DNA of 64,000 bases. It comes from Phycisphaerales bacterium. GTDB lineage: Bacteria; Planctomycetota; Phycisphaerae; Phycisphaerales; UBA1924. The stretch lies in contig JADLGW010000044.1 of NCBI GenBank assembly GCA_020849105.1, positions 13,683-77,682 of the forward strand, in the 5' to 3' direction. The position numbers and the translations under genes are program-made. Below the pieces are notes generated by a model. It was given only the letters and a program-made list of their open reading frames with translations. It searched no databases and had not been told where the DNA came from. Shown piece by piece: positions 1,167-53,794 of this stretch (the first letter of the stretch is position 1; each line of letters starts with the position of its first letter).

Positions 1167-1227
1167 GACCGGAAGATTCTTTGGCCCCGGCGGGCCCCGT
1201 CGCCGCATGAGTGCATGGAGAACCACC

Positions 1228-3423
1228 ATGCGGCTCATACCCCTTGTTCTTGGCGTTGCCGCGGCCTTCGTGTGTGTGCCCTCGGCACGGGCGCAGCCGG
1301 ACCGCTACGCGGACACCGAGACCGGCTGGGCGTACTACTTCGGCGCCAGCCCGACCACGATCGCGGGCTCGATCGGGCAGGGGCTCCGTCCGTTCAGCGT
1401 CGAGCGCGTGGGGTTCAATCAGTACGACACGATCCTGGTCGGCAACAGCGGCATCTACAGCGCGGGGACGCCGCGGATCGCGTATGACCTGACCCCCACG
1501 GGGGTGTCCGACTGGCTCACGGCGAACAACCTGCGGCTCCTGGACCTGGAGTGCTACGACATCGGGGCCGGGCTGCTGCGCATGACGGCGGTGGGCGTTC
1601 CGAACAGCGGCGGGACGTCGGCGCCGGGCTGGGGCTACCTGTACAACGCGACCGCGGCGCAGATCAACTCGTGGATGAGCGCGAACGGCCAGCGGCTGAT
1701 CGACCTGGATGTGTACTCCCTGAACGGGACGAAGTACTACTCCGGGGTCTCGGTCCCCAACGCCGGCGCGGCCCACCACGACTGGCTGTACGCGTACAAC
1801 CGGACGGAGCAGGAGGTCGTGGACCTGCTGACGCAGAACAGCGCCCGGCTGGTGAGCATCTCCGTGGAGAGCGTGGGCACGATCACGAACCCGGTGGTGC
1901 GGTACACGGTTGTCGCCATCGGCGACAACCCGGGGGCGGGCTGGTTCTACGGGAACCTGTCGGGTGGGCAGGTCGGGAGCGAACTGGCCCGCACCGGCTC
2001 GCGGCTCACCTGCTTCCGGCGGTTCACCGACGCGTTCGGCCAGACCCGCTACGCCGTCGCGATGGTGGACAACGCCAACGCGCAGACGCGCCGCGTCCGC
2101 GACCTGATCTGGGCCGGCTGCACGGGCACGACCGGGTTCCAGATCAAGGAAGTCGGCGGCGGGGTCGTCGCGGGGGTCAACGGCGACTTTGTGTGGGAGC
2201 CGGCCAGCACGATCAAACTCCTGCACGGTGTGTACGCGATCTACCAGTGCGCGCTGGGGAACGACTCGCTCACGGCGAGCGTGTCCTACCGCAACGAGTG
2301 CGCGACCTGCCCGCTTGCCTGGACCTGCGCGCTCACGCTCGACTCGGTGAGCAACTCACTGCGGCGGATGCTCGAGCCCAGCGACAACTACGCGCTCATC
2401 GCCTTCGAGCACCGCTACGGCGTTCCCACGCTCAATAACTTCGCGGCGAGCATCGGCAGCCCGAACATCAAGTCGTTGCGGCAGGACTGCAACTGCGGCC
2501 AGACTCTGAACACGGCCACTTGCACCGACATCGTGAACCTGATGGAGAAGGCCGCGGACGGGAGCCTCTTCGACAGCGGGTGGCGCGACACGCTCTTTGA
2601 CCGCATGAACGACCTGGACGGCCAGGGCTACGGCATCTACCCGACCCTCAGCGGGGTCATCGCCTCCGAGGCGGCGGCGATCAACCTCCCGGCCTCGGAG
2701 CGCGAGAGTTTCCGCACGGCGATGCGGTACGCGAACAAGGGCGGTCTGTACGACTGCTCCGGCCCTCCGCGGCGACTGTGGCACACCGAGGGCGGGTGGG
2801 CGAGCATCCCCCGCAAGGTCTACTTCCTGAACAACTGGGTCGTCGTGCCGCGGGAGTACACCTTCGCGCTGTTCGACGACGCGGCCAGCACCGAGTCGAA
2901 CACGATCTACATGATGAAGGAAGAGATGTTCCGCGAGCAGATCCGCGAGGCGCTGGGCACCTGGAAGAGCGCGTGTACCCCGCGTGTGACCGCCGATCCG
3001 GAGGATGTCCTTGCCGCGGCCGGCGGCTCCGCGGAGTTCACGGTGGAAGCGACGGGATCGGCGCTCACCTACCGCTGGCGCCGCAATAACGTCTACCTGA
3101 GCAACCAGGCCGGGCACATTGCGGGGGCGACGGCCGCGACCTTGCAACTGTCGAACATCGTCCCCGCCGACGCCGGGGATTATTCCTGCGTCGTCAGCGG
3201 CCCCTGCGGGAGCGACACCTCGGCCGCGGCTGCGCTGACCGTGATCGTGCCCGTGTGCTACCCCGATTGCAACGGTGACGGGGCGCTGAACCTGTCGGAC
3301 TTCGGTTGCTTCCAGACCAAGTTCGCCCTGGGGCAGCCGTACGCGGATTGCAACGGGGATGGGCAGCGGAACCTCGCCGACTTCGGGTGCTTCCAGACCA
3401 AGTACGCCCTGGGCTGCCCGTGA
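1228..3423 (+). CDS. Secreted multidomain protein: four ~60-aa tandem repeats, a class-A beta-lactamase-fold serine hydrolase domain, an Ig-like domain and a Cys-rich dockerin-like tail
   Basis: Inner ATG at 1228 gives signal peptide MRLIPLVLGVAAAFVCVPSARAQ. Hydrolase motifs are SxxK (ASTIKLL), SDN (EPSDNYA) and a KGG variant of KTG. The Ig-like stretch is AGDYSCVVSGPCG. The last 55 aa are the CYPDCNGDG...GCP module. The 868-1227 part of the track ORF is an upstream artefact. Confidence 0.85.
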   Translation: MRLIPLVLGVAAAFVCVPSARAQPDRYADTETGWAYYFGASPTTIAGSIGQGLRPFSVERVGFNQYDTILVGNSGIYSAGTPRIAYDLTPTGVSDWLTANNLRLLDLECYDIGAGLLRMTAVGVPNSGGTSAPGWGYLYNATAAQINSWMSANGQRLIDLDVYSLNGTKYYSGVSVPNAGAAHHDWLYAYNRTEQEVVDLLTQNSARLVSISVESVGTITNPVVRYTVVAIGDNPGAGWFYGNLSGGQVGSELARTGSRLTCFRRFTDAFGQTRYAVAMVDNANAQTRRVRDLIWAGCTGTTGFQIKEVGGGVVAGVNGDFVWEPASTIKLLHGVYAIYQCALGNDSLTASVSYRNECATCPLAWTCALTLDSVSNSLRRMLEPSDNYALIAFEHRYGVPTLNNFAASIGSPNIKSLRQDCNCGQTLNTATCTDIVNLMEKAADGSLFDSGWRDTLFDRMNDLDGQGYGIYPTLSGVIASEAAAINLPASERESFRTAMRYANKGGLYDCSGPPRRLWHTEGGWASIPRKVYFLNNWVVVPREYTFALFDDAASTESNTIYMMKEEMFREQIREALGTWKSACTPRVTADPEDVLAAAGGSAEFTVEATGSALTYRWRRNNVYLSNQAGHIAGATAATLQLSNIVPADAGDYSCVVSGPCGSDTSAAAALTVIVPVCYPDCNGDGALNLSDFGCFQTKFALGQPYADCNGDGQRNLADFGCFQTKYALGCP
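3256..3420 (+). repeat. Dockerin-like Cys-rich C-terminal module, copy 1 (165 nt / 55 aa)
   Basis: CYPDCNGDGALNLSDFGCFQTKFALGQPYADCNGDGQRNLADFGCFQTKYALGCP, immediately before the stop codon. Confidence 0.9.
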
Positions 3424-23623: not shown

Positions 23624-26434
23624 TCATCGCTTCCGGGCGGCGATCTCGGCACGGAGGGCGTCGGCTTTTTCGCCTTCACTCCGGGCGTCGTAGAGCGCTG
23701 CACGCCGCTCCAGCACCGCCAGGGTTCGGGGGTGGCGCGGCCCGGCGGTGGCCGCGAGTACGTCCTCGGCCTCCAGCAGGCCCGCCTCCGCTTCGGCCGG
23801 GTGGCCCAGCCCGATCTGCGCTGCGGCGTGCTGCTCCAGCGCGGTGCCCAGCCGCCAGGTGGGCGGCAGGTCCCGGGCCGCCTTTATGAAAGGAGCGAGT
23901 GTGGTCAGAGCCTCGGTGAACCGGCCCTGCGCGTTGAGAGACCGGGCGAGCGCGGTTGCCACGAACAGGGTGTCCGGATGGGCGTTCCCGAACGCCAGGG
24001 TGTTGATCCGGAGCGACTCTCGGAAGGGTGCTTCGGCCCGATCGGGCTGGCTGCGTTCCTCGGCGATAAGGCCCAGTTCGTGCTCAGAGATGGCGATGTA
24101 TGAGCGATCCGGGCCGTACACGAGGCGCAGCGCGGACAGGGCGCGGTGCTGGGCTTCTTCGGCCTCGTCCAGCCGCCCCGTGCTGCGATAGAGGCGGGCG
24201 AGCGTCGCGACGCTCAGCGCCGTCTCGCCCGCGGCCTCTCCGAAGAGCCGTGACCTGCCCTCCAGGGCTTCGCGGATCAGCGGCTCAGCGCCGGCGTAGT
24301 CGCCCCGCACCCGGATGAGGAGTTGGGCGATGGCATCAAGCGTGGTCCAGACCGAGGGATGGTCGTTGCCGTGGGCCGCGCGGTAGATGCCCAGGGCCTC
24401 GCGGAGGGACGCCTCCGCGGCCGCCGCGTCGCCCGCGGCCTGCTGAACCTCCCCGAGTTCGTACAACGTGTTGGCGACATCCGGGTGCGCGGGCCCCAGC
24501 AACCGACGGCCCATTTCGAGGGCGCGGGAGAGTGTTGCCTTCGCCCCGTCCAGGTCGCGCCGCAGGAACTGGAGCCAGGCACGATCGTTCAGGCCGTCCA
24601 CGAGGCGCGGGTGCTCCGCGCCATAGATGGCCTCCCAAGCGGTCATGGCTTCATCGAGGAACCGCTCCGACGCGGATACATCACCGCGGTCGCGCGCCAG
24701 TTTGGACAGGTTCATGAGGCTTTCGGCGGTCTCCGAGCCGTTCGGGCCCGGCAACTCGCGGCGTATGGACAGCGCGAGGTCCGCGTTGTCCTGGGCCTGG
24801 TTGAACCTGGCCTCGTGACGCTGGACGTCGGACAGGCCGTGCAGCGCGGCCGCGACCTGGGCGTGCCTGGGCCCCAGCGCCTGCCGGCTCACGGTCAGAG
24901 CCTCGGTGAACAGCCGTTCCGCGCCCGGGTAGTCTGCCTGGTCATGGCGCACCCAGGCCAGGTCGGACAGGGCGGCGGCCACCTTGGGGTGTCCCGCGCC
25001 TTGCAGTGCATTGCGGAGGTCGAGCGCCGCCTGGAGGTTGTCCCGGGCGCGCGGGTAGTCACCCAGGAGGCGGTACGCGTTGCCGATGGTGGACCTGACT
25101 TGCGCCTCGACCTCGGGCTGGCCGGCGAGCCGCTCGTCCAGGTTGCGGGAGATGTCGTCCAGCAGTTGCCGGACGGTGTACCCGGCGCCCTTCACCTCGT
25201 GCGGGTTCGCGGCCCGCAGCGCCGACTCCAGGAGCCCGCTGACGGACTCTGCGGTCTGGCGTCTGCGCTCGGCGCGCACGAGGCCGTAGGTTGTCCCCGC
25301 CAGGCCCGCCGCCAGCGCAACGAAGACCGCGCCGGAGGCGGCGACCAGGAGCCGGTTTCTCCGGGCGAAGAGGCGGAGGTGGTAGAGGGCGCTCGGCGGG
25401 CGGGCGGCTACCGGTACGCCGTCGAGGTGGCGGCGCAGGTCCGCGGCCAGCGCCGCAGCCGTGGCGTAACGGCGGTCGGGGTCCTTTGCCATGGCCGCCG
25501 CGGTGACGGCCTCAAGGTCTCCCCGCAGGGCGCGATCCACATGGCCGAGGCGGAGCGGCTCGCGCTCCTGGATGATGCGCAGGGCTGCGACGGCCGAGGC
25601 TGACGTGAGGTCCAGCGGGAGGCGGCCGGCCAGCAGTTCATACAGGATCACGCCGAGGGCGTAGACATCGGCCTGCGCTCTTGCGGGTTCGCCGGCGGCC
25701 TGCTCCGGGCTCATGTAGGCGAGCGTGCCCACCAGAAGGCCGGGCTCGGTGTGTGCCGCGGTGGGGCCGGGTTCCATGGGGCGGGCGACCCCGAAATCCA
25801 GCACCTTGGGCTGGCCGTGCTCATCCACGATGATGTTGGACGGCTTCAGGTCTCGGTGCACGACGCCGTGGTCGTGGGCGTAGTGCACCGCGTCGCAGAC
25901 GCGGGCGAGCAGTTCAAGCCTGGCCCGGCGATCCAGGTCCGCGGCGTGTTCCAGCAGCGTCCGGCCGCGCAGCAGTTCCATCGCGAAGTACGGCCGGGCG
26001 TCCTGACCATCGGTTCCCGCGGCGTAGACCTGCGCGATGCCGTGGTGGTGAAGCCGGGCGAGGATCTCCGCCTCCTGGCGGAAGCGGGCGAGCGCAGCCC
26101 TGGAGTTGAGCCCCCGGGCCAGCACCTTGAGGGCCACGGCGCGGCGTGGGTGGTCCTGCTCGGCCTCGTAGACCGTGGCCATGCCGCCGCTCCCGAGGAT
26201 TCTTGTAATGCGGAAGCCGCCCAGTTGCCCGGCCAGTACCTGCGGCATGGCTCGGACGGGGTGGCCGGCCAGCACGGCGCGAAGGTCATCCGCAAGGAGT
26301 TCGTTGCGAACAAGGTCGGCGAGGAGGCGGGAGCAGGCAGCGCACGTCTTGGCGTGCCGATCCAGGTCGGCGCGATCGGGGGCGGTACCGGCAACGAGGG
26401 CCGCCCAGCGCTCAATCGGCGGGCAGGCGGTCAC
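23624..26434 (-). CDS. Anti-sigma (HxxxCxxC) / Ser-Thr protein kinase / TM / TPR fusion protein
   Basis: GTG at 26434 overlaps the sigma gene stop (GTGA). ZAS-like HAKTCAAC. Kinase motifs GSGGMATVYEA, HRDLKPSNII, DFGVAR and GTLAYMSPEQ. One TM helix (LLVAASGAVFVALAAGLAG) is followed by about 500 aa of TPR-like repeats. Confidence 0.9.
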   Translation of the reverse strand: MTACPPIERWAALVAGTAPDRADLDRHAKTCAACSRLLADLVRNELLADDLRAVLAGHPVRAMPQVLAGQLGGFRITRILGSGGMATVYEAEQDHPRRAVALKVLARGLNSRAALARFRQEAEILARLHHHGIAQVYAAGTDGQDARPYFAMELLRGRTLLEHAADLDRRARLELLARVCDAVHYAHDHGVVHRDLKPSNIIVDEHGQPKVLDFGVARPMEPGPTAAHTEPGLLVGTLAYMSPEQAAGEPARAQADVYALGVILYELLAGRLPLDLTSASAVAALRIIQEREPLRLGHVDRALRGDLEAVTAAAMAKDPDRRYATAAALAADLRRHLDGVPVAARPPSALYHLRLFARRNRLLVAASGAVFVALAAGLAGTTYGLVRAERRRQTAESVSGLLESALRAANPHEVKGAGYTVRQLLDDISRNLDERLAGQPEVEAQVRSTIGNAYRLLGDYPRARDNLQAALDLRNALQGAGHPKVAAALSDLAWVRHDQADYPGAERLFTEALTVSRQALGPRHAQVAAALHGLSDVQRHEARFNQAQDNADLALSIRRELPGPNGSETAESLMNLSKLARDRGDVSASERFLDEAMTAWEAIYGAEHPRLVDGLNDRAWLQFLRRDLDGAKATLSRALEMGRRLLGPAHPDVANTLYELGEVQQAAGDAAAAEASLREALGIYRAAHGNDHPSVWTTLDAIAQLLIRVRGDYAGAEPLIREALEGRSRLFGEAAGETALSVATLARLYRSTGRLDEAEEAQHRALSALRLVYGPDRSYIAISEHELGLIAEERSQPDRAEAPFRESLRINTLAFGNAHPDTLFVATALARSLNAQGRFTEALTTLAPFIKAARDLPPTWRLGTALEQHAAAQIGLGHPAEAEAGLLEAEDVLAATAGPRHPRTLAVLERRAALYDARSEGEKADALRAEIAARKR

Positions 26435-27018
26435 GCCGACTCCCCCTCTCTGGTGAAGTCCTCGCCGGTGAGATCCAGCATCTTTGCGCGGATTCTCTCG
26501 AGCACCCGGTGCTTCGAGACATAGACCTGATTCACCGACATGCCCAGCGCAGCCCCCACGGCCTCGGCGGACCTGCCGTCCAGGGCGGTGCCGACGAACG
26601 CGGCATAGGTGGAATCCGCGACCTCCGCGCGGGCGGCTTCGGCGCAGTAGCGCAGGTGAGCCTCGGCCCAGTGGCGATCCCAGACCTTGTCGGCGGCCGG
26701 CGTGTCGTCCGGCTGGGCCCGCCACTCGCCGCTGGGCAGGCGGACCTCGTGCCGGCGCCGCGCCAGGTCGGCGATCTTGTGGTGGGCGATGGCCCGCAGC
26801 CATCGGCTGAAACTGCCCTGGTGGGCGTACTGGGCGATCTGCTCCAGAACCGCCTGTGAGCACTGCTGGGCGACGTCCTCGGCGTCCGCCCGGGTCAGGC
26901 CGCGCGCCCGGGCATAACCGATCAGCATCCCGCGGTAGAGCACGTCGAAGGTCTGCCACGCCTGCTGGTCGGCGGGGTTCCGAAGCCTGACCAGGAGCGT
27001 TGAACGAGTGGGGTCCAC
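26431..27018 (-). CDS. ECF-type RNA polymerase sigma factor
   Basis: Sigma-2 region (AWQTFDVLYRGMLIGYARARGL..DAEDVAQQ) and sigma-4 HTH (SAEAVGAALGMSVNQVYVSKHRVLERIR). GTG at 27018 lies 7 nt after GGAG. The track ORF start at 27105 is also possible. Confidence 0.85.
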   Translation of the reverse strand: MDPTRSTLLVRLRNPADQQAWQTFDVLYRGMLIGYARARGLTRADAEDVAQQCSQAVLEQIAQYAHQGSFSRWLRAIAHHKIADLARRRHEVRLPSGEWRAQPDDTPAADKVWDRHWAEAHLRYCAEAARAEVADSTYAAFVGTALDGRSAEAVGAALGMSVNQVYVSKHRVLERIRAKMLDLTGEDFTREGESA

Positions 27019-27138
27019 CGCGAGGCTCCGACGGTGTCCGGCCTGGGGGCGATCCACGCAGATTCCGCATCCCAAGTGTAAGGAAAACCCGGGGCGTGCG
27101 AGCACCTCCTGGACTCACCCCATTTCACGGAGACTCCC

Positions 27139-28383
27139 ATGACCCGCACGATTACCAGCCGCTGCCCCGCCCTCACGCCGGCCATCCTTGTCCTCGCCGC
27201 GGCGGGCCTCGCCCAGCATGTGGCCGCCCAGCCCGTGATCACCAACCTCGGGTCCCTGATGGGCTCGTCGAGCGCGTCGGCCGTGAACGCCGACGGCACC
27301 GTTGTCGTTGGGACCAGTGACTTCGTCCCATTCCCCGGCGGCAGCCGTCCGTTCCGGTGGACGAGCGGATTGGGCATGACGAACCTGGGCACGCTCGGCG
27401 GGATCTACGGCGGGGCGCGCGCCGTGAGCGCCGATGGCCTGATCGTGGTCGGGTCGAGTGAGACAGCATTCCGGTGGAGCGACGCGCTCGGCCTCGTCAG
27501 CCTGGGCGCCCTTTCAGGAGGGATCGGGTCGTCGGCCGCGGGCGTGAGCGCGGACGGCTCGATCATCGTCGGCGTCAGCAGTTCCGAGTTCGGGGACCGC
27601 GCGTTCCGCTGGGCCTCGGCCCTCATCGGCATGGAGAACCTGGGGACGCTGCCCGGCGGGGGCTACTCCTCGGCACGCGGCGTGAGCGCCGACGGGGCGG
27701 TGATCGTGGGCGAGAGTGAGGTCGCGGGCGGCACATGGCTCGCGTTCCGGTGGACGGAGGCCACCGGCATGGTCAGCCTGGGAACGATCATCGGTGTGCC
27801 CACCGCGTATGGATCCTCGGCGTTCGGTGTGAACGGAGATGGGTCGGTCGTGGTCGGGCGCGGGGGCACCACGTTCGGCGTGCGCGCGTTCCGCTGGACG
27901 GGAGGCGGCGGCATGGTCAGCCTCGGGGCGTTCCCGGGCGGGACAACGACGGAGGCCCGCGCCGTGAACGGCGATGGGTCGGCCGTCGTCGGCACGGGCC
28001 TTACCCCGCTGGGGGCGCGTGCATTCCTGTGGACCGAGTCCTTGGGGCTGGTGGACCTCAATACCTACCTGCCGACGCTCGGCGTCAGTCTTGCCGGTTG
28101 GACGCTGGAGGAGGCCCGGGGCATCAGCGCCGACGGCACCGCGATTGCCGGCTATGGCGTCTTCGGCGGCGAGCAGCGGGCGTGGATCGTGACCGGGCTC
28201 GGATCCGGCGTTCCCTGCTACCCAGATTGCAACGGCGACGGGGCCCTGAACCTGGCGGACTTCGGGTGCTTCACGACGAAGTTCGCTCTGGGTGACGGGT
28301 ACGCCGACTGCAACGGGGACGGCGTGCGAAACCTGGCCGACTTCGGCTGCTTCACGACCACGTTTGCGCTCGGGTGCCCGTAG
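27139..28383 (+). CDS. Secreted HAF-type repeat protein with dockerin-like tail
   Basis: Signal peptide, then about 8 repeats of the form (R/L)AFRW..G.GMV.LG.L.GG..S.A.GVSADGS.(V/I)VG. The last 55 aa are the CYPDCNGDG...GCP module. Confidence 0.88.
   Translation: MTRTITSRCPALTPAILVLAAAGLAQHVAAQPVITNLGSLMGSSSASAVNADGTVVVGTSDFVPFPGGSRPFRWTSGLGMTNLGTLGGIYGGARAVSADGLIVVGSSETAFRWSDALGLVSLGALSGGIGSSAAGVSADGSIIVGVSSSEFGDRAFRWASALIGMENLGTLPGGGYSSARGVSADGAVIVGESEVAGGTWLAFRWTEATGMVSLGTIIGVPTAYGSSAFGVNGDGSVVVGRGGTTFGVRAFRWTGGGGMVSLGAFPGGTTTEARAVNGDGSAVVGTGLTPLGARAFLWTESLGLVDLNTYLPTLGVSLAGWTLEEARGISADGTAIAGYGVFGGEQRAWIVTGLGSGVPCYPDCNGDGALNLADFGCFTTKFALGDGYADCNGDGVRNLADFGCFTTTFALGCP
28216..28380 (+). repeat. 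Dockerin-like Cys-rich C-terminal module, copy 2
   Basis: CYPDCNGDGALNLADFGCFTTKFALGDGYADCNGDGVRNLADFGCFTTTFALGCP. Confidence 0.9.
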
Positions 28384-28686: not shown

Positions 28687-29991
28687 TCACGCCTCAAACC
28701 GGACCATTCCGCCGACGATGGTTGCCACCGCCCGGCCGCGGACTCTGCGGCCCAGGAAGGGCGTGTTGCGGGACATGCCGGCCAGACAGGCGGCGTCCAG
28801 TGTCCACTCCATCTCCGGGTCGATCACGGTCACGTCCCCCGGGCCGCCGACGGTGAGCGAGCCGAGCCCGCGGCGGTCGAGGCCGCACAGGCGGGCCGGC
28901 TCGATGGTCATCAGTTCAATGAGCCGTTCCCAGCCGATCGCGCCCGTGGCGACCAGGGCCTCGGCGTAGAGCGGCAGGGCCGTTTCCAGCCCGATGATGC
29001 CGAAAGGGGCGTCCTCGAAGGGCCGGGCTTTCTCCTGCGGCGCGTGCGGCGCATGGTCGGTGGCGAGCACGGTGATCGTGCCGTCGGCAACGCCGGCGCG
29101 GAGGGCGTCCACGTCCGCCCGCTCGCGCAGCGGGGGGTTCATCTTGGCCGCGGTGTCGTAGTCCTCACACGCTTCGTGTGTGAGCAGGAGGTGGTGGGGT
29201 GACGCCTCGGCGGTCACGGGCCGCCCGGCGGCCCGTGCGCGGCGGACGATATCAACGGAGCCGGCCGAAGAGATGTGCTGGACGTGGTACCGCGAGCCGA
29301 TCCCCGCGTTCAGGCGCACGTCGCGCTCGATGATGATCTCCTCCGCTGCCCGCGGCCAGCCGGTGAGGCCGAGGCGCGCGGCGACCTCCCCGGCGTGCAT
29401 CGACGCGCCGCGGGTCATGGTCGTTTCCTGGCAGTGCTGCATGAATGCCAGCCCGGCATCGCGGCACGCGGCCAGGACGCGGGCCATCACGGCGGCCGAC
29501 GCCACACAGTCGCCGTCGTCGCTGATCCCGACCGCGCCGGCCCGGGCGAGCAGCCCGATCTCCGTCACATCGTCACCCCGGCGGCCCCGCGTTGCCGCGG
29601 CCACTGTGAAGATGCGGCACGCGGAGGTCGCGGCGGCGCGGTGGGCGATGAACCCGACCATCTCGGGCGAGTCCAGGGCCGGGCCGGTGTTGGGCATGCA
29701 GCAGACGGTGGTGAAGCCGCCCGCGGTCGCGGCACGTCCGCCGGTCTCCAGGGTCTCCTTGTGCTCGCCTCCGGGCTCGCGAAGGTGGACGTGGGGGTCG
29801 ATCAGCCCGGGAACGACCAGGCACCCGCTGGCATCGATCACGCGATCGGCCGGGTCTGAGGAGAGCCCCGGGCCGATGTCCCGGATCGCGCCGTTCTCCA
29901 TGGCCACGTCGGCGTCGGTCGGCGGGGCGAAACCGCCACCGACCTGCGGACTCCCGATAACCCGTCCGCCGGCGATGAGGAGCGATGCCAT
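28687..29991 (-). CDS. pyrC: Dihydroorotase
   Basis: Inner ATG at 29991 (MASLLIAGGRVI). PGLIDPHVHLREPGGEHKETLETGGRAATAGGFTTVCCMPNT and the later DHAPH motif. Confidence 0.9.
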   Translation of the reverse strand: MASLLIAGGRVIGSPQVGGGFAPPTDADVAMENGAIRDIGPGLSSDPADRVIDASGCLVVPGLIDPHVHLREPGGEHKETLETGGRAATAGGFTTVCCMPNTGPALDSPEMVGFIAHRAAATSACRIFTVAAATRGRRGDDVTEIGLLARAGAVGISDDGDCVASAAVMARVLAACRDAGLAFMQHCQETTMTRGASMHAGEVAARLGLTGWPRAAEEIIIERDVRLNAGIGSRYHVQHISSAGSVDIVRRARAAGRPVTAEASPHHLLLTHEACEDYDTAAKMNPPLRERADVDALRAGVADGTITVLATDHAPHAPQEKARPFEDAPFGIIGLETALPLYAEALVATGAIGWERLIELMTIEPARLCGLDRRGLGSLTVGGPGDVTVIDPEMEWTLDAACLAGMSRNTPFLGRRVRGRAVATIVGGMVRFEA

Positions 29992-30175
29992 CGGCGTGAG
30001 GATACACGCCCCCTTGCCCACTTTGCCGGATGCAGGGAACCCGCCCCAACTCGGGTGCGAAAGGGCACCCGTTCGCACATTTCCCGGTTCCCCATCCCGG
30101 AATAGGCTGTATTGTGAACGCTCGACGGGCGGAGAGCCCGGCGACGCCCCCCACGTTTGCACGGAAGGAGACTGC

Positions 30176-32890
30176 ATGTCCTCACGTTGGATGTCCCGCG
30201 CCGCGGCCTTCGTGTCGCTGGCCTGTTGTGGTATCGCCCTGGCCGACGGCACGCTGAACGCCGCGGCGGAGCACCTTCGCACCCTCTACCCCGGCACCCA
30301 GTTCGTGTGGGAGGGCAACCAGGTCCGCGGAATCTACGGTGTGCCGATGACGATGGGCATGAACCCTGAGCAGGCCGCGACGCAGTTCCTTGCGGCCCAC
30401 GGCGCGGCCTTTGGCGCGGGCACGCTGGAACTGGTTGCCCGCCCGGCCAGCACGGTCCAGAACGGGCGGTTCACCGTCTACTCCTACGGCCAGACGATCT
30501 CCGGCATGCCCGTCGAGTACGGCGAACTTCGAGTCCTGGTGCTGAACCAGCCCGTTCCGCGGGTGGTGTACGCGAGCGGCCGGCTGGCGGCGGCCCCCGC
30601 GGCGGGGTTCCCGGAGGCGGCGAGCACCGGCGCGGGCGCCCTGGCGAGCGTCCGGGCGCTGCGGCAGTATTCCGACCTGACCAACTGGACGGCCCCCTTG
30701 GCCGCGATCTACCAGGGCGATGAGGTCTGGGCGGCGCCGGTGCGCGTCTGGAAGTTCTCCGGCTCCGGCGCACCGAACCGGGTGTTCACGTTCTTTGTCG
30801 ACATGGCGACCGGGCTGGTTGTCGAGGCCCGGAACGAGGTCTCCACGACCGACGTGACAGGCACCGTGAAGGGCATGGCGACGTCGGGGCTGCGCGCCGA
30901 CTACGCGGGCAACCCGCCGACCCTGCAGAACATCCCGGAGGTGAACGTGAGCGTGGCGGGCGGCTCCGCGGCCCTGGCGGACCGCAACGGCAACTTCACC
31001 ATCCCGAACGCGGGCTCCGCCCCCGTGACTGTGAACACCAACGGCACGAACGCCCGGTGGATCACGATTGTGCCGCAGGACGGTGCGCCGCTGGTCTCCG
31101 CCAGCGTGCCCAACGTGACGCCGGGCGTCCCGGCCACGCCCACGTTCAACGCCGTGCCGTCGGCGACGACGACGTCCCAGGTCAACGTGCTGATCCACGC
31201 GGACCTGACGCACAACTACTACACGGACCGCGCCCCGGGGATCAACCTGCCGCGGATCCAGGGTCGCACCGGCGTCGCGGGCACCTGCAACGCGTTCTTC
31301 AACGGCTCCTCGATCAACTTCTACAACCTGGGCGGCGGCTGCAACAACACGGCCTTCAGCACGGTGATCGCCCATGAATACGGGCACTATGTGGTGCAGC
31401 AGCTCGGGCTCCAGCAGGGCGCCTTCGGCGAGGGGTTCGGCGATACCACCTCCGTCCTGCTCTACGACACCGGCCTGATGGGCGAGTACTTCACGACCGG
31501 CGGCGGCCTGGTCCGCAACCTGATCACCACGACCCGCGTGTACCCGTGCAGCGGCGAGGTGCACGACTGCGGTGAGGTGCTCGGGGCGTTCTGGTACCGG
31601 GCGAAGGAGAACTTCAAGGGCAAGTACGGGGCCACGACCGGCCTCGACAACATCCGCGACCTCCAGGTCGCATGGGCGGACATCACCATCGGCGGCTCGG
31701 GCAGCAACTCGCTCCACCCGGCGAGCGCCGTGGAGATCCTGACCGTGAACGACGACGACGGGAACCTTGCCAACGGCACGCCGGACTATTCGGAACTGTG
31801 CAGCGCGTTCCAGGCCCGCAACATCCCGTGCCCGGTGGTCTCGCTGCTGGCGTTCTCGTACCCGAACGGGCGGCCGGCGACCCTGACGCCCGGGCAGCCG
31901 ACGACGATCCGTGTGGATGTCGCCGGCGTGTCGGCAACCCCCGTGCCGAACTCCGGCACGATGACGTACAAGGTCAACAGCGGCTCATTCCAGACCGTGC
32001 CGATGATGCAGATTGCCGCCAACCAGTACGAGGCGGTCATCCCCGCGGTGGCCTGCCGCGACGACGTCCGGTACTACTTCGGTGCGCAGTCGAGTTCCGG
32101 CGCGGCCGTTGACCCGCAGGGTGCGCCGGGGACGACGTTCGGTGCGGTCGGGGGCGCCGCGCTCACGGCGGTCTTCACCGATACATTTGAGACAAACCTG
32201 GGCTGGTCCGGGGTGGCCCCGGGCGATACCGCGGCCACGGGGCGCTGGAACCGGATGGACCCGCAGCCCACGGCGGCCCAGCCCGGGGATGACGTAACCC
32301 CCGCACCCGGTGTCAACTGCTGGGTGACGGACGGCAACGCCGGGAGCGGCATCGGAACCTACGACGTGGACTCCGGCTTTACCACGCTGACCTCGCCGGT
32401 CCTTGACCTTTCCGCGAGCCCGGACGCGAAGATCAGTTATTGGCGCTGGTACTCCAACGACCAGGGCGGCGCACCCAACGCGGACACGTTCAACATCGAC
32501 ATCACCAACAACGGCACGAACTGGGTGCCGGTCGAGGTGGTCGGGCCCGGCGGAGTCCAGGCGAGCGGGCAGTGGTACTTCCACGAGTTCCGCGCGGCGG
32601 ACTTTGTCGCGCCGTCGGCGACGGTCCGGGTTCGGTTCATCGCGTCCGACCTGGGCGATGGATCGATCGTCGAGGCCGCGGTGGACGACTTCAAGGTCGC
32701 GGCCGTGCAGTGCTCCTCGGCCTGCTACCCCGACTGCAACGGCGACGGTGCGCTCAACCTGTCCGACTTCGGCTGCTTCCAGACGAAGTTCGCGACCGGC
32801 AACTCGTACGCTGACTGCAACGGGGACGGCGTGCTGAACCTGTCCGACTTCGGCTGCTTCCAGACGAAGTTCGCGGTGGGTTGCCCGTAG
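30176..32890 (+). CDS. Secreted gluzincin-type zinc metalloprotease with a jelly-roll (MAM/choice-of-anchor-J-like) domain and dockerin-like tail
   Basis: ATG at 30176 follows GGAAGGAG. Signal peptide MSSRWMSRAAAFVSLACCGIALA. Catalytic motifs HEYGH and downstream GAFGEGFGD (ExxxD). C-terminal CYPDCNGDG...GCP. The 29180-30175 part of the track ORF is antisense to pyrC. Confidence 0.85.
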   Translation: MSSRWMSRAAAFVSLACCGIALADGTLNAAAEHLRTLYPGTQFVWEGNQVRGIYGVPMTMGMNPEQAATQFLAAHGAAFGAGTLELVARPASTVQNGRFTVYSYGQTISGMPVEYGELRVLVLNQPVPRVVYASGRLAAAPAAGFPEAASTGAGALASVRALRQYSDLTNWTAPLAAIYQGDEVWAAPVRVWKFSGSGAPNRVFTFFVDMATGLVVEARNEVSTTDVTGTVKGMATSGLRADYAGNPPTLQNIPEVNVSVAGGSAALADRNGNFTIPNAGSAPVTVNTNGTNARWITIVPQDGAPLVSASVPNVTPGVPATPTFNAVPSATTTSQVNVLIHADLTHNYYTDRAPGINLPRIQGRTGVAGTCNAFFNGSSINFYNLGGGCNNTAFSTVIAHEYGHYVVQQLGLQQGAFGEGFGDTTSVLLYDTGLMGEYFTTGGGLVRNLITTTRVYPCSGEVHDCGEVLGAFWYRAKENFKGKYGATTGLDNIRDLQVAWADITIGGSGSNSLHPASAVEILTVNDDDGNLANGTPDYSELCSAFQARNIPCPVVSLLAFSYPNGRPATLTPGQPTTIRVDVAGVSATPVPNSGTMTYKVNSGSFQTVPMMQIAANQYEAVIPAVACRDDVRYYFGAQSSSGAAVDPQGAPGTTFGAVGGAALTAVFTDTFETNLGWSGVAPGDTAATGRWNRMDPQPTAAQPGDDVTPAPGVNCWVTDGNAGSGIGTYDVDSGFTTLTSPVLDLSASPDAKISYWRWYSNDQGGAPNADTFNIDITNNGTNWVPVEVVGPGGVQASGQWYFHEFRAADFVAPSATVRVRFIASDLGDGSIVEAAVDDFKVAAVQCSSACYPDCNGDGALNLSDFGCFQTKFATGNSYADCNGDGVLNLSDFGCFQTKFAVGCP
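32723..32887 (+). repeat. Dockerin-like Cys-rich C-terminal module, copy 3
   Basis: CYPDCNGDGALNLSDFGCFQTKFATGNSYADCNGDGVLNLSDFGCFQTKFAVGCP. Confidence 0.9.
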
Positions 32891-43463: not shown

Positions 43464-44690
43464 CTACGGGCACCCCATCGCGAACTTCGTCTGGAAGCAC
43501 GCGAAATCGGCGAGGTTCCTTACCCCATCACCGTTGCAGTCCGCATACGCCTCACCCAGCGCAAACTTCGTCTGGAAACCCCCGAAGTCCGCCAGGTTGA
43601 GCGCCCCGTCGCCATTGCAGTCGGGATAACAGTCGCAGCCATAGGAAGCCCATTGCCCGGTGGACAGGCTGAAGCTGCCCGCAACGACGATCTGATCCTG
43701 GTACGGCGCCATCGCCGAAATCGTTGCATCGACTCCCGGGTCCATTGAATGCCACGCCGCCCCGTCCCAAGCCGCAACCGAACGCGAGGGTGCGCCGCCG
43801 ACCCCGGTGAAGTCGCCGCCGACAACGAGATGGCTGCCACGGACGATGAGCGCCCCCACCATCATGAGACCTTGCACGGCACCCACCGCTTCCCACTGGA
43901 ACCCGTTCCACCTCGCAAACTTATTCACCGGTCCTGAGAATACTCCCCCAGCGTATATGTCCCCCCCAAACTCGCGGACGGCAAGAACAGGGGAAAAATC
44001 GACACCGAAGAGTCCGGTAGCAAAGCCGGACCAGTCGTCGCCATTCCACCGTGCCACGTTGTTTGCCGGAACGCCGTCGGCATCATAGAAGAGTCCTCCC
44101 GCGACCAGCCCTTCTTTGGATGGACATAGGGCATACACGGCGGGATTATTCAGGTAAGCGCCGGTCATGCCCCCTCTAAGTGGGCGCCAACTCTTGCCGT
44201 CCCATCGGGCAATGCATTGCGCCGGGTTGCCGCCGGCACCATTGAATGATCCACCGATTATCAGTTCGCCCTCCCACTCGCAGCACGAATAGACGGCGCC
44301 CCCCTGTACCCCTATGCCGAGGGTGTGCCATTCGTCGCCGTCCCACGCTGCTACGCGACCAGCCGGAATCCCACCGGCAACCGAGAATGCGCCGCCCGCA
44401 ACCAGCTCCCCTTCATACTGCACAAGAGCCCACACCTGGCCGTTCACCCCAGTCCCGAGCGGCGACCACGCGCCGCTCGGGGCTCGGCGCGCCAGGTACT
44501 TGATTTGATTGCCACCGGCGGTCGCGAACTGTCCGCCCAAGACAAGCTCGTTGTTATACTCAGCGCAAGCGTATACATATGCCAAACCACCGCCCACACC
44601 GGCGGAGACTGGGTACACCGTCCACTCAGGAATGCACTGACCCAGTGCGGACGGCACCAGTAACGCCGACACGAAACAGACAGGCCTCAC
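43464..44690 (-). CDS. Secreted beta-propeller-like repeat protein with dockerin-like tail
   Basis: About 7 repeats of ~50 aa of the form (A/V)A(R/W)WDG..W..LG.G..G.V.A....G.L..GG.F..AGG. Signal-like VRPVCFVSALLVPSALGQ if the GTG at 44690 is used, which overlaps the upstream stop as GTGA. Terminal CYPDCNGDG...GCP. ATG 44726 is the alternative start. Confidence 0.8.
   Translation of the reverse strand: MRPVCFVSALLVPSALGQCIPEWTVYPVSAGVGGGLAYVYACAEYNNELVLGGQFATAGGNQIKYLARRAPSGAWSPLGTGVNGQVWALVQYEGELVAGGAFSVAGGIPAGRVAAWDGDEWHTLGIGVQGGAVYSCCEWEGELIIGGSFNGAGGNPAQCIARWDGKSWRPLRGGMTGAYLNNPAVYALCPSKEGLVAGGLFYDADGVPANNVARWNGDDWSGFATGLFGVDFSPVLAVREFGGDIYAGGVFSGPVNKFARWNGFQWEAVGAVQGLMMVGALIVRGSHLVVGGDFTGVGGAPSRSVAAWDGAAWHSMDPGVDATISAMAPYQDQIVVAGSFSLSTGQWASYGCDCYPDCNGDGALNLADFGGFQTKFALGEAYADCNGDGVRNLADFACFQTKFAMGCP
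43467..43631 (-). repeat. Dockerin-like Cys-rich C-terminal module, copy 4
   Basis: CYPDCNGDGALNLADFGGFQTKFALGEAYADCNGDGVRNLADFACFQTKFAMGCP. Confidence 0.9.
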
Positions 44691-44974
44691 CTGCGCCTCC
44701 CGCTCTCGAGATATAGCATGAAGCACATGAAGTCACGGCTCGTGAGCACACCGTCATGGTCGCAGTCGGCACGCGCGTCACCTGACGCGTAGCGGCTACG
44801 GAAGCACGCCAAGTCGGATAGGTCGACCACCCCATCGGTTGGCAGCACCCCGCGCCTCCCGGTCCGTCCAAGGACCATTTCAGGCCGAGATGCTTTAGTC
44901 TGCCCCAGAGTGCCCATCTTGTCAAGGGTGATCTTCTTCGAATTCTGCCAATCCATGATCTTCGCACGCCGCAT
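44687..44974 (-). CDS. Small ORF (95 aa) that is little more than a degenerate dockerin-like module
   Basis: MRRAKIMDWQNSKKITLDKMGTLGQ...PTDGVVDLSDLACFRSRYASGDARADCDHDGVLTSRDFMCFMLYLESGRRR. No signal peptide. About 55% GC. Its stop overlaps the GTG of the next gene. Confidence 0.45.
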   Translation of the reverse strand: MRRAKIMDWQNSKKITLDKMGTLGQTKASRPEMVLGRTGRRGVLPTDGVVDLSDLACFRSRYASGDARADCDHDGVLTSRDFMCFMLYLESGRRR

Positions 44975-50143: not shown

Positions 50144-51466
50144 CTAGGGACAACCACGCGCGAACTTCGTCAGGAAGCATCCGAAGTCCGAGAGGTTGCG
50201 CACGCCATCGCCGTTGCAGTCGGCGTAGGGCTGGGCGAGGGCGTAGCGGGTCTGGAAGCAGCCGAAGTCCGCAAGGTTGAGCGCGGTGTCGGAGTTGCAG
50301 TCGGGGTAGCAGGACGAGGGCAGCGTGGCCATGTAGATGCCTTCAGCGCCGTTCGTGAACTCGACCCAAAGAGCGATGGACCGGCCGCTGAGCCCCTGCG
50401 GCCCCATGTTGATGTCGAAAGCAAGATTGCCGTCGAGGATGTCGCCCTGGGCCGCGACCTTGGACAGCACGCCGTTCTCCCAGGTGTAAGTGCCGCGGTT
50501 ACCGCCGCCGAAGTGTCCTACGAACGCGATCAGGCCGTCCTCCATCGAAACCCAGCCGAAGCCGTTGAACGTGCCGGAATGGCCTGGGATCGGTGTGTCG
50601 TGGTTCGCGATCTTGATGAGTGTCCCACCGAGGTCGGTGTAGATGCCCTCTTGATCACCGCCCTGTCCGAAGAAGGCCATGGCGCCGTCGTCGTTCAAAC
50701 TCCCCCGGCCAAGATTGGTGAATGTGCCGCCGTTACCGGCCGGGACGACGGTGGCGCGGTCGTACCGGCGGTGCAGGCCGCTGGAGTCGCTGACATAGAT
50801 GCCCTGCTGATTGACGCCGAGCGCGGTGAATGAAACTCGGCCGTTCCGCAGTACGGTGTTGCCGAAATCCGTGAACATGCCCGTGCCGCCGGGAATCAGG
50901 GTGGACCGGTCGGCAATGATCGAGAGCAAGCCGTTCTCCCACGAGTAGACGCCTTTCTGGTTGTCGCCAGATTCAGAGCCAGCGAAAACTACGCGATTGC
51001 TCTCGACAACTGGCGAGTTCGTGATTGCAAATGTGCCACCATTCCCATTCGGCACGAATATGAGAGTAGTGGCGACTGCCATGATTCCCGCGTCGGAACG
51101 CAAGAATACGCCGCCTTCGACGCCGTCGCCCGCTTGAAAACTGGTTGAAGTTCCGTGTATCGAAGGGCGCCAGTTGGCGACAAAGCCAAACCCAGTAAAG
51201 TGTCTTCCGCCCGGCGACAGGGTATTCAGATCCGCGACCACCGTGAGCGGTCCGCCCGATCCGCGATACACACCCTGCATGGTTGACGCCTCGGCCATGA
51301 ACGCAACTACGCCCCGGTCGATCGCGGGCTCTAGGAACTGCTGGAAGGGAGAGATTGCGCCCGGTGCAATAGTGGCCGTGTCCGCAATGCGGCTGACAAT
51401 CACCGGCTGGGCCGCGCCTTGGGACCCCATCAGCAAACCGCACAACGAAATAGTGGCGACTCTCAT
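50144..51466 (-). CDS. Secreted tandem-repeat (NxxGxxAF-type) protein with dockerin-like tail
   Basis: GAGGGAG RBS. Signal peptide MRVATISLCGLLMGSQGAAQP. About 6 repeats of ~55 aa of the form G.F..FG......(N/D)..G..AF......(Q/E)GIY. Terminal CYPDCNSDTALNL...GCP. Lower GC than the flanks. Confidence 0.85.
   Translation of the reverse strand: MRVATISLCGLLMGSQGAAQPVIVSRIADTATIAPGAISPFQQFLEPAIDRGVVAFMAEASTMQGVYRGSGGPLTVVADLNTLSPGGRHFTGFGFVANWRPSIHGTSTSFQAGDGVEGGVFLRSDAGIMAVATTLIFVPNGNGGTFAITNSPVVESNRVVFAGSESGDNQKGVYSWENGLLSIIADRSTLIPGGTGMFTDFGNTVLRNGRVSFTALGVNQQGIYVSDSSGLHRRYDRATVVPAGNGGTFTNLGRGSLNDDGAMAFFGQGGDQEGIYTDLGGTLIKIANHDTPIPGHSGTFNGFGWVSMEDGLIAFVGHFGGGNRGTYTWENGVLSKVAAQGDILDGNLAFDINMGPQGLSGRSIALWVEFTNGAEGIYMATLPSSCYPDCNSDTALNLADFGCFQTRYALAQPYADCNGDGVRNLSDFGCFLTKFARGCP
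50147..50311 (-). repeat. Dockerin-like Cys-rich C-terminal module, copy 5
   Basis: CYPDCNSDTALNLADFGCFQTRYALAQPYADCNGDGVRNLSDFGCFLTKFARGCP. Confidence 0.9.
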
Positions 51467-51476
51467 TCTGTCTCCC

Positions 51477-53537
51477 TCACTCCAAGAAGCTGAGGTCCGT
51501 GAATGCCTCCGCCATGTCTGCGTTGGTAAGTGCAGTAGTCGTGTCGATCATCCCTCCGAACCACCTGAACTCGCACACCTCGCCTGAAGTGCTGACACCG
51601 CCGCTTGGCCCACGAAAACGCAGTTCGGTGAATGGTGCGGACGGAGTAAAGGAAATCCCGGCCGGGACCACCTGAACACGATCGCCACCGACACTCACCC
51701 CGACATACAGCTTGTGGACAGACGAATCGTATCCCACCGCAATCAGGACAGGAGAGTCCGCAGTCCAGGCGATGTGCGGAACATTGTTCACGTCGACGCC
51801 CGCCTCGTGGTTGGTCACAGTCCCGCCGATGGAAACCGCAATCCGGAGAGTCTTTTCCTCACAGTTGGCGATGAGGGCGATCCAGTTGGAACTGTCGGCC
51901 CAAGGGGTGCAGAGCGGCCAGCGGCGATCGCTTTCGAACTGACCGGTACCGCTGTTGAATTGCCCCCGTGCCGCGAAGCGATCCCAGTTTCCGACCGGCA
52001 TCATGCCCACGAGTTTCACGGACCAGTCGGTGGTTGTGCCGAGGCTGAAGTTGTAGATCCGCAGCAGTTCATCCGGCGCATCGATGAGGTGGCTTCCTTG
52101 AGGGGCCAGCGGATAGGGGAGCGCGCCATTGCCGTCGAGCGCCGTATCGATCAGAAGGTAGTAATAGTTCTCGTCGACATCCGTGTCGATGCCGCTGTCC
52201 CTGGCGTACATGCGGAGCGTGAAGCCGCCCGCGACATCGAGGGGGCGGCCGCACTGTGCCCAAAGATTGGGCTCGGAGGAGTCCGGGCAGTACAGAACAC
52301 GGTCGGCGTCCCGGTCCTGGCCGGCGAGGGCCTCGGCCTCCATGTAGCAAGCAACGATGGGGTTCTCGTTGGCCGTTCCGCCCGTCAGTTCGGGCCGCGG
52401 CTGCGTCAGATTGAAGACGGAGCCTGTTGCGTTATTCGTTCCAACCGAGGTGCCCCACCCGTACAGATGATCAAACTGCGCTTCCTGGACCTCACCGGCA
52501 TCGGCAGGAAGCCGCGTGGCAAAGAGCGTCTCCGTCCCCAGGTCCGCCCCCCAGAACATGACGCGTTCCACGGGGCTGAACGCCGCACACACCGGCTGGG
52601 GGCTTGTGGTTGACACCGGGTACGGATCGGGATCGGTGACCGGCGTGCCCACGCCGTGGAAGTTGTCGGTGAGGGTCCAGTTGCCCGGATCGGAATAATC
52701 AAGGTCAATGTCGTCAAGTGACGCATGAATGAAACGAGCCAGGCCCTTGCCGTCTCCCGTCGACATTAGAACCTGAACACCTTGGGAGTCCTCTTCACCG
52801 GTCCACTCGGTTGCGATGGCGGAGTGCACGTGGTAGACCGGACGTGTGTTTGGGGCCCAGATGTCGAACGCCATCACCCATGCCTGGTGCGGGGAAGCGG
52901 GATTACGCTGGACATCCCACGGACCCACACTGTCTCCCTCGATGGTCCGCACGATGTGGAAGTAGTACCCGCGGCCGGAAGCAGCCTCGGGCTCAGAAGG
53001 GCTCGCGGCCTTGTTGATGTAGTCAGAACTGACGATCGCGCACCGCCCGGGCGGGTCTGCGGGGTCGCGTTCGTAGACCGGCGCGGCCCGCACGCACCAG
53101 ACTTGGCCTCGTCTCTTGAAACGCTGCGCGTGCGACGTCGGCGCATCCGAATCGTCCCACAGTAGGGTCCAGGCACTCTGAAGGGGGTCGCTGAGCGCGA
53201 AGCCCCACCCGAGAATCTCGTACTTTGGAGGGTCCGCTGTGTCGTCCGTGCATATCCAGACCGGGCCGCCGGCGACAATCGCCCCATGAAAGACAACGAC
53301 GGAATGCACCTCGAGGGCCTTGTTCCCGATCGTCTGCGGCTTCAGAAGCACGTCCGAGAATTCAGTCAGCCCGACCGCGACGGAGAGCGAATCTGGCTCG
53401 CGTATCTCCATGTTGGTGACCGATGCCTCTCCGCTCCCAAAGGGGGGTGTTCCCGTGATCGTGCCGCCGTGAAATGTCCAAAGCGGACACGGCAACTGAC
53501 TCGGACCGCCTGACGCAAACGCGTCCGCGTACACCAT
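51477..53537 (-). CDS. Large hypothetical protein (~686 aa): no signal peptide and no recognised catalytic motif, with a possible C-terminal LamG/jelly-roll
   Basis: Uninterrupted ORF with coding-like composition. It ends 10 nt before the next gene. ATG at 53537 overlaps the stop of a small upstream ORF (TGATG). TTG 53579 and GTG 53564 are alternative starts. Confidence 0.7.
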   Translation of the reverse strand: MVYADAFASGGPSQLPCPLWTFHGGTITGTPPFGSGEASVTNMEIREPDSLSVAVGLTEFSDVLLKPQTIGNKALEVHSVVVFHGAIVAGGPVWICTDDTADPPKYEILGWGFALSDPLQSAWTLLWDDSDAPTSHAQRFKRRGQVWCVRAAPVYERDPADPPGRCAIVSSDYINKAASPSEPEAASGRGYYFHIVRTIEGDSVGPWDVQRNPASPHQAWVMAFDIWAPNTRPVYHVHSAIATEWTGEEDSQGVQVLMSTGDGKGLARFIHASLDDIDLDYSDPGNWTLTDNFHGVGTPVTDPDPYPVSTTSPQPVCAAFSPVERVMFWGADLGTETLFATRLPADAGEVQEAQFDHLYGWGTSVGTNNATGSVFNLTQPRPELTGGTANENPIVACYMEAEALAGQDRDADRVLYCPDSSEPNLWAQCGRPLDVAGGFTLRMYARDSGIDTDVDENYYYLLIDTALDGNGALPYPLAPQGSHLIDAPDELLRIYNFSLGTTTDWSVKLVGMMPVGNWDRFAARGQFNSGTGQFESDRRWPLCTPWADSSNWIALIANCEEKTLRIAVSIGGTVTNHEAGVDVNNVPHIAWTADSPVLIAVGYDSSVHKLYVGVSVGGDRVQVVPAGISFTPSAPFTELRFRGPSGGVSTSGEVCEFRWFGGMIDTTTALTNADMAEAFTDLSFLE

Positions 53538-53794
53538 CACTTCGGTCGAGCCGTCTTCCGCCACCCCCGAGCAGAACAAAATGTCGCCGGCGCTGAAGAC
53601 GTGTTCGTACTCTTCTGGGATTGCTGCGATGGGGCTTCCCGGTCCCGGCGCGGAAGTCCCGAAGCCACGCCCGCGCCATCGGGATCAACGGTCGCGATCG
53701 CCCGCGTGAAACTCTGGTGTATTGACGTACTCGACAGGATAAATGCATCGGCGCTCGACTTTGTCTCGTCCGACTTGAACGTGTACACCGCCAT
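53537..53794 (-). CDS. Small hypothetical ORF (85 aa)
   Basis: ATG at 53794 lies 6 nt after GGGGA. MAVYTFKSDETKSSADAFILSSTSIHQSFTRAIATV..., then a low-complexity tail. Its stop overlaps the downstream ATG. Weak call. Confidence 0.3.
   Translation of the reverse strand: MAVYTFKSDETKSSADAFILSSTSIHQSFTRAIATVDPDGAGVASGLPRRDREAPSQQSQKSTNTSSAPATFCSARGWRKTARPK

Follow-up and report, generated by a model that had tools for sequence, protein, structure and literature searches.

The 64-kb window analyzed here (the whole stretch of 64,000 nucleotides from contig JADLGW010000044.1, part of a metagenome-assembled genome (MAG) of a Phycisphaerales bacterium with locus tags IT437_) encodes five proteins, referred to below as carriers 1 to 5, that end in closely similar, cysteine-rich tails of 55 amino acids (aa). 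A preliminary description of this DNA had pointed out these tails and likened them to dockerins. Translation of all five intervals gave the 55-aa module followed by a stop codon, and every copy ended in GCP directly before the stop, in agreement with that description. A profile built from the five tails found the same five in all six frames of the window (E 1e-35 to 1e-37) and one additional, diverged module (E 2.6e-11), so that the count of five rose to six. The modules and the genes that carry them are listed below, with tail residues numbered C1 to P55 within the 55-aa module.

3256..3420, + strand: GC-type dockerin tail 1, closing carrier 1 (coding sequence ~1207-3423); the passenger has a signal peptide, a BTRD1 repeat, a beta-lactamase fold and an Ig I-set domain.
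28216..28380, + strand: GC-type dockerin tail 2, closing carrier 2 (coding sequence 27139-28383; signal peptide, HAF repeats).
32723..32887, + strand: GC-type dockerin tail 3, closing carrier 3 (coding sequence 30176-32890, MCC6660984.1); the passenger has a signal peptide, an HEYGH...GAFGEGFGD motif and no supra-threshold family.
43467..43631, - strand: GC-type dockerin tail 4, which has Gly in place of Cys18, closing carrier 4 (coding sequence 43464-44726 with an alternative start at 44690, - strand; DUF5122-type beta-propeller).
44690..44845, - strand: sixth dockerin-like module (PTDGVVDLSDLACFRSRYASGDARADCDHDGVLTSRDFMCFMLYLESGRRR, then the stop), without the equivalents of C1, C5 and C54.
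50147..50311, - strand: GC-type dockerin tail 5, closing carrier 5 (coding sequence 50144-51466, GenBank MCC6661002.1); the passenger consists of DUF7453 / NxxGxxAF 'choice-of-anchor' repeats.

The longest open reading frames (ORFs) of carriers 1 and 3, starting at 868 and 29180, overran adjoining genes by ~110 and ~330 codons, namely that of an MFS transporter and that of an opposite-strand amidohydrolase, respectively. The overrunning parts (868-1206 and 29180-30175) had an Arg-rich frame with a low G+C content at third codon positions (GC3). The proteins that begin at the true starts, ~1207 and ~30176, both have a signal peptide. After this correction a plausible N-terminal Sec signal peptide was found on all five carriers, as had been proposed, for instance MRLIPLVLGVAAAFVCVPSARA before QP and MSSRWMSRAAAFVSLACCGIALA before DG. 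The passengers, which are unrelated to one another, were largely those described before. The beta-lactamase fold, the HAF repeats, the propeller and the NxxGxxAF repeats were all recovered, and the gluzincin protease assigned to carrier 3 held at the level of the motif only. Besides that motif there were sub-threshold thermolysin-like hints, and neither the PDB nor supra-threshold Pfam matches gave support for a protease. GenBank labels carriers 3 and 5 'hypothetical protein'. The tail-bearing genes make up five of the ~56 called genes, about 9% (about 10% had been estimated), and they are dispersed among ordinary chromosomal genes rather than gathered in one operon.

The consensus of the five tails reads CYPDCN(G/S)D(G/T)ALNL(S/A)DFG(C/G)F.T..A...YADCNGDG..NL(S/A)DF(G/A)CF.T..A.GCP, and 36 of the 55 columns are invariant. 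Pairs of tails shared 73-82% nucleotide identity and differed at 11-20 codons synonymously and at 8-12 non-synonymously. By these counts the peptide sequence of the tail is under purifying selection. The abundance of synonymous differences also ruled out recent DNA duplication or gene conversion as the source of the similarity.

The tails belong to a family that has already been curated. The NCBIfam model NF041540, 'GC-type dockerin domain-anchored protein' (67 positions, curated cutoff 29 bits), aligned over positions 1-67 of 67 in all five carriers. Carriers 3, 4 and 5 scored 33.0, 31.4 and 30.6 bits, above the cutoff, and carriers 1 and 2 missed it by under 1 bit, at 28.9 and 28.1 bits, which bears out the family name given in the preliminary description. 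The same model was matched by 112 of 114 full-length relatives, with a best E-value of 7e-22. Remoter members scored 47-58 bits, one of them keeping only the first and last cysteine, and the window tails are therefore marginal in the family. They share with it the C-terminal position and the conserved Gly-Cys on which the model ends; they are set apart by four additional cysteines that are invariant, by their short linker and by a terminal Pro that lies outside the model. By sequence, then, they form a marginal, short-linker, six-Cys subfamily. The family itself is not new, and the window tails are new members of it. A literature search found no publication using the name 'GC-type dockerin' and no experiment on the family, as had been supposed.

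The sixth module scored 38.3 bits on NF041540, above all five listed tails. It closes a short ORF on the - strand, running from an ATG at 44974 to a TGA at 44687, which has no signal peptide and no space for a passenger. The TGA overlaps the possible GTG start of carrier 4 (GTGA). The module is probably what remains of a former carrier, or else an ORF that consists of a tail only.

Each tail is an internal duplication, as recognized earlier, of a unit of ~27 aa rather than ~23 aa. The loops of the two units, D-x-N-x-D-G-x-x-(N/T)-x-x-D, were near-invariant in 168 relatives, and loop positions 1, 3, 5, 9 and 12 were D, N, D, N/T and D in both units of at least 150 of these. Position 12 was Asp, as in dockerins, in contrast to the Glu of EF-hands. 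These features agree with the calcium-loop pattern of type I dockerins that had been proposed. We then compared a profile of 34 GC-type tails by hhalign with reference dockerins, each scoring above the Pfam threshold (42-76 bits). The full reference set gave a probability of 97.9% with both repeats in register, a value biased by three members that had been picked by the pattern 'YADCNGDG'; the set not picked by pattern gave 92.2% (E 6e-7), again with both repeats in register. The linker between the repeats was ~8-9 residues shorter in the GC type than in the reference dockerins. An AlphaFold2 (AF2) model from a 49-sequence alignment predicted exactly two helices, each starting from the end of a loop, with a per-residue confidence (pLDDT) of 86-95 over the tail.

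Matches to single Pfam models were weak. Dockerin_1 and EF-hand models were the only consistent Pfam matches of the tails, all of them sub-threshold. Dockerin_1 (PF00404) was the best match for four of the five tails, fell behind EF-hand_1 for tail 3, and also matched the sixth copy. Its E-values for the window tails ranged from 2.7e-4 to 0.087 and its scores from 13.5 to 21.5 bits, under the gathering threshold of 22.9. Of the two profile matches that had been anticipated, that to NF041540 was thus confirmed, and that to Dockerin_1 was the best available in Pfam though sub-threshold. A profile search of PDB sequences gave only weak EF-hand proteins (E 0.09-1) and no dockerin, and a Foldseek search of the AF2 tail against the PDB gave nothing significant (best E 5, calmodulin) for what is a very small domain of 55 aa. 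Weak matches also fell at the C-terminal end (~826-883 of 889) of a model of the cellobiosidase CelK, a region that we take to be its dockerin.

Low scores and missing PDB matches, by sequence or by fold, would be expected if the tail were an unrelated Cys-rich mini-domain in which D-x-N-x-D-G motifs had arisen by chance. Such convergence seems highly improbable. It leaves unexplained that both units align in register with verified dockerins (92-98% in hhalign), that the predicted fold is a loop followed by a helix, twice over, and that the match to CelK falls at its C-terminal end. The NF041540 scores are moreover highest for members that have kept just their two outer cysteines, which implies that the internal cysteines were added to a dockerin-like core. 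A pair of EF-hands (PF13499 / PF00036) fits poorly as well, given the sub-threshold scores, the Asp at position 12 and a model without a helix before loop 1. The loop ligands, the predicted following helices and the in-register hhalign alignment correspond instead to the duplicated F-hand of type I dockerins. We therefore read the tails, from their sequences, as remote homologues of type I dockerins made of two tandem 27-aa loop-helix ('F-hand') units. Like the tails, type I dockerins have two tandem F-hand loops with D/N/D/(N,T)/D ligands and a helix after each, show internal two-fold sequence symmetry, and are usually found at the C-terminus of secreted enzymes. The GC-type tails differ in their six invariant cysteines, in recognition positions 10/11, which are L-(A/S) rather than S-T, in their diderm planctomycete host, and in their passengers, where cellulases give way to mainly propellers, repeats and peptidases.

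Across 1.84 billion cluster representatives, an index-free search with the profile gave 6,201 proteins at E<=1e-3, of which 1,124 reached E<=1e-10; a separate homologue search with the 55-aa profile returned short fragments only. In 200 of 202 retrieved relatives the tail lay no more than 3 aa from the C-terminus, in 188 it lay exactly at the C-terminus, and 177 ended in GCP, so the tail was nearly always C-terminal, much as had been supposed. We also scanned one genome per species for loci, seeding the scan with two tail-specific peptide patterns. The 61 resulting loci all came from Phycisphaerales, Phycisphaeraceae or Phycisphaerae MAGs, and the same scan gave a few weak matches to Bacteroidota proteins and to genuine dockerins from Clostridia. 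These loci contained 112 distinct tails, of which 103 were within 3 residues of the stop, four were cut by the end of the locus and five lay further in. Tails often occurred on two to five consecutive genes, and a single related MAG held at least 64. The passengers of 114 relatives matched 59 Pfam families, with many beta-propellers, Ig/fn3 domains, beta-helices and subtilases, and also several NCBIfam 'choice-of-anchor' families. A crude signal-peptide heuristic was positive for 64% of the 114 metagenomic relatives, a figure confounded by truncated or mis-started gene calls.

The number of units varied among the relatives, which included one-unit tails (CYPDCNGDGQLTVADFGCFQTKYVLGCP), three-unit tails and internal copies without the outer Cys pair (examples are at L037 640-1905, L038 3209-4525 and L054 172-1470, and in proteins P0065, P0116, P0063, P0064 and P0167). 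One secreted protein consisted of three dockerin-like modules joined by Pro/Ala-rich linkers. On a 450-kb contig (L070 10001-10204), a 67-aa gene encoded a signal peptide and a GC-type tail only, that is, a secreted free dockerin, which could act as a competitor or cap. Another locus (L071 2888-12741) carried five consecutive GC-tailed genes, encoding three M14 carboxypeptidases, one S8 subtilase and a 96-aa tail-only ORF.

The cysteines of the tail were examined for likely pairing. All six were invariant in 163 of 168 close tails, and for that reason covariation within the close subfamily was silent. A handful of natural variants was more informative. Two tails (L020 and L049) retained only C1 and C54. 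In the L059 tail C32 and C45 were lost jointly, and in one further variant C5 and C18 were. Internal, non-terminal copies had lost C1 and C54 together and kept the inner pairs, and tails of one or three units had a single outer pair and, for every unit, an inner pair. Since cysteines are lost in pairs, these few variants suggest the disulfides C1-C54, C5-C18 and C32-C45. In each unit, the inner disulfide would run from loop position 2 to helix position 15. By analogy, C1-C54 may act as a covalent counterpart of the N-C 'intramolecular clasp' of dockerins, a general stabilizing feature of the classical members, where an aromatic residue just preceding loop 1 and a C-terminal Pro stack on each other (PMC3821032). 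The GC-type tails likewise conserve Y2 and P55.

The most informative new result came from the homologues of carrier 5. They carry differing C-terminal modules, all starting at one junction after ...GIYMAT(I/L)P. In carrier 5 and its closest relatives, ...GIYMATLPSS is followed by the GC-type tail (CYPDC...GCP). In four paralogues from the same MAG (IT437_02895, _02905, _11520 and _11525), ...GIYMATIPGP is followed by GVVVSLAAAGLLFARRRR. This tail has a tripartite build of motif, transmembrane (TM) helix and Arg cluster (RRRR); it is PEP-CTERM-like and fell below threshold on every sorting-domain model. Sorting tails built like exosortase substrates, albeit sub-threshold ones, do therefore occur in the source genome. 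Orthologues of carrier 5 in other lineages continue after ...IPEP with a TM-RRR tail that is a true PEP-CTERM (TIGR02595, 24.6 bits against a cutoff of 16), and still other homologues end in Dockerin_1 at the Pfam threshold or in IPTL-CTERM. Because sorting tails replace it at a fixed junction, the GC-type dockerin occupies the slot of a cell-envelope anchoring or sorting module, which lends support to the anchoring or sorting tag proposed for these tails. The source genome runs at least two anchoring or sorting tail systems side by side.

Both kinds of tail take this slot in one and the same family of passengers (DUF7453/NxxGxxAF, HAF repeats), yet they are built differently. The GC-type tail has no transmembrane helix, basic cluster or PEP motif and is predicted to be a folded, soluble domain with calcium loops; accordingly, none of the five window tails has the features of PEP-CTERM (TIGR02595). 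The C-terminal domain of the type IX secretion system (T9SS), a beta-sandwich of ~80 aa, differs from the predicted two-helix module of 55 aa, and family scans of the five carriers gave no T9SS-type match.

A shared slot raises the question of whether the tail might itself be a secretion or sorting signal, read by an export or processing machinery in the manner of T9SS or PEP-CTERM/exosortase and perhaps removed or modified at the Gly-Cys. The strict extreme C-terminal position, the conserved terminal G-C-(P), the exchange with a PEP-CTERM-like tripartite tail at the same junction in paralogues, and scans of window proteins in which no receptor was seen are all in keeping with this. We regard it as unlikely nonetheless. 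The tail is homologous to a protein-protein docking module and contains neither a transmembrane segment nor a known sorting motif, no candidate processing enzyme was identified, and the internal and tandem copies and the secreted three-module protein of relatives are hard to reconcile with a signal of this kind.

We lean instead, with moderate confidence, towards the view that the GC-type dockerin tail docks secreted passengers on a shared, putative receptor of the cell envelope. The carriers would leave the cytoplasm via Sec, and outside it the tail would oxidize and load Ca2+. The tail would then dock its passenger non-covalently onto one shared putative envelope receptor, and the docking face may be formed by the near-invariant helix residues, ADFGCFQTKFA in both units. 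The Q-T-K/R residues of the helices, which are putatively exposed, were strongly conserved in both units across paralogues, and in other lineages QTKF was replaced by LNxF/W in both units together. Conservation and joint replacement in the two units argue for docking to a shared, co-evolving protein partner.

The same residues bear on a further possibility, that the tail is a Ca2+/disulfide module without a receptor, through which carriers self-associate by F-hand pairing or bind a Ca2+-rich matrix of polysaccharide or lipopolysaccharide. Single-unit tails, which would be expected to pair like lone EF-hands, the secreted tail-only protein and the multi-tail proteins of relatives could be understood in this way, as could the lack of a cohesin in our scans. 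The conservation of Q-T-K/R in both units and its joint replacement elsewhere are, however, what a shared protein partner would produce, and known dockerins bind cohesins, not glycans. This makes a receptor-less module quite unlikely in our judgment, less so than convergence and more so than a sorting signal.

Several observations weigh against docking on a shared receptor. A Pfam scan of 40 window proteins (the five carriers and 35 ORFs, including every called gene of at least ~220 aa) found no Cohesin and no other candidate receptor, in line with the preliminary description. Of the 59 Pfam families matched in the 114 relatives, the 25 most frequent likewise included neither a cohesin nor another receptor candidate. 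The five window tails adjoin their passengers directly, with no Pro/Thr-rich linker, such as is usual before classical dockerins, and in their rigid terminal position and the conservation of their last residues they resemble sorting signals more than they do classical dockerins. To these we add the sub-threshold Dockerin_1 scores, the PDB searches by sequence and by fold that returned no dockerin, and the small number of variants behind the disulfide map. Four 20-kb contexts of relatives likewise showed no Cohesin. The dockerins of cellulosomes bind the cohesins of scaffoldins; for the GC-type tails no cohesin partner was found.

To our knowledge, non-cellulosomal dockerins are widespread, and their partners and roles are mostly unknown. 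In the Phycisphaerae, an in silico study of the Nemodlikiaceae (CL500-3; Andrei et al. 2019, PMC6461901) put forward a cohesin/dockerin 'planctosome' with M14 and M12B peptidases. Dockerin-bearing peptidases would there dock on cohesin-bearing anchor and adaptor proteins (PMC6461901). The run of GC-tailed genes with three M14 and one S8 peptidase described above would fit this proposal if the two share a module; in contrast to the proposal, the window showed neither a cohesin nor a lamin-tail-domain (LTD) anchor or adaptor protein. Other Planctomycetes, too, are reported to have expanded sets of dockerins, for which no mechanism was given (PMC5264255).

As a tentative and rather doubtful extension of the docking view, the GC-type dockerins might be the cargo half of a large envelope-assembly system of the Phycisphaerales, a 'planctosome'-like display whose receptor would be something other than a canonical cohesin. 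Such a system would run parallel to PEP-CTERM-like anchoring and be swapped with it by tail exchange at a fixed junction, and the three-disulfide staple would suit an oxidizing periplasm or surface.

The surroundings of the carriers yielded some further observations. The G+C content of the window is 66-72%, and among the neighboring genes are ffh, ribBA, those of a Kdo transferase, an SNF2 helicase and kinases, a DUF1501/DUF1800 pair and the genes of a ribosomal-protein operon. In carrier 1, the BTRD1 'polyglycine hydrolase-like structural repeat' was a sub-threshold match (20.2 bits against a cutoff of 23); its combination with a beta-lactamase fold and an Ig I-set domain (1207-3255, + strand) recalls fungal polyglycine hydrolases. 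Directly upstream of carrier 2, and divergent from it, are an ECF-type (extracytoplasmic function) sigma factor and a 1,164-aa Ser/Thr kinase with TPR repeats (23624-27105, - strand). A 700-aa gene with no Pfam match and no signal peptide (51477-53579, - strand) lies 10 nt upstream of carrier 5. Its homologue (37% identity, E 2e-54) was found directly upstream of a carrier 5 homologue on an unrelated metagenomic contig (L072 8538-10004), and the two genes appear from this synteny to form a conserved cassette. We considered the 700-aa protein as a receptor and rejected it; it is syntenic but has no signal peptide. The genes of carriers 4 and 5, together with the sixth copy and the 700-aa neighbor (43464-44974 and 50144-53579), had GC3 values of 0.69-0.77, against 0.86-0.93 for the rest of the window, an atypical codon usage that perhaps reflects their more recent acquisition.

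For now these findings are of limited value, since the family had been catalogued before, its hosts are uncultured and no partner was found. The swap with PEP-CTERM-like tails, the putative three-disulfide staple and the conserved helix face nevertheless offer handles for finding the receptor, and the same three results could guide the engineering of very small, covalently stabilized docking tags. With about one in eleven genes tailed in 64 kb and at least 64 copies in one related MAG, the partner of the tail must organize a large part of the exported proteome, including propellers, adhesin-like repeats and peptidases.

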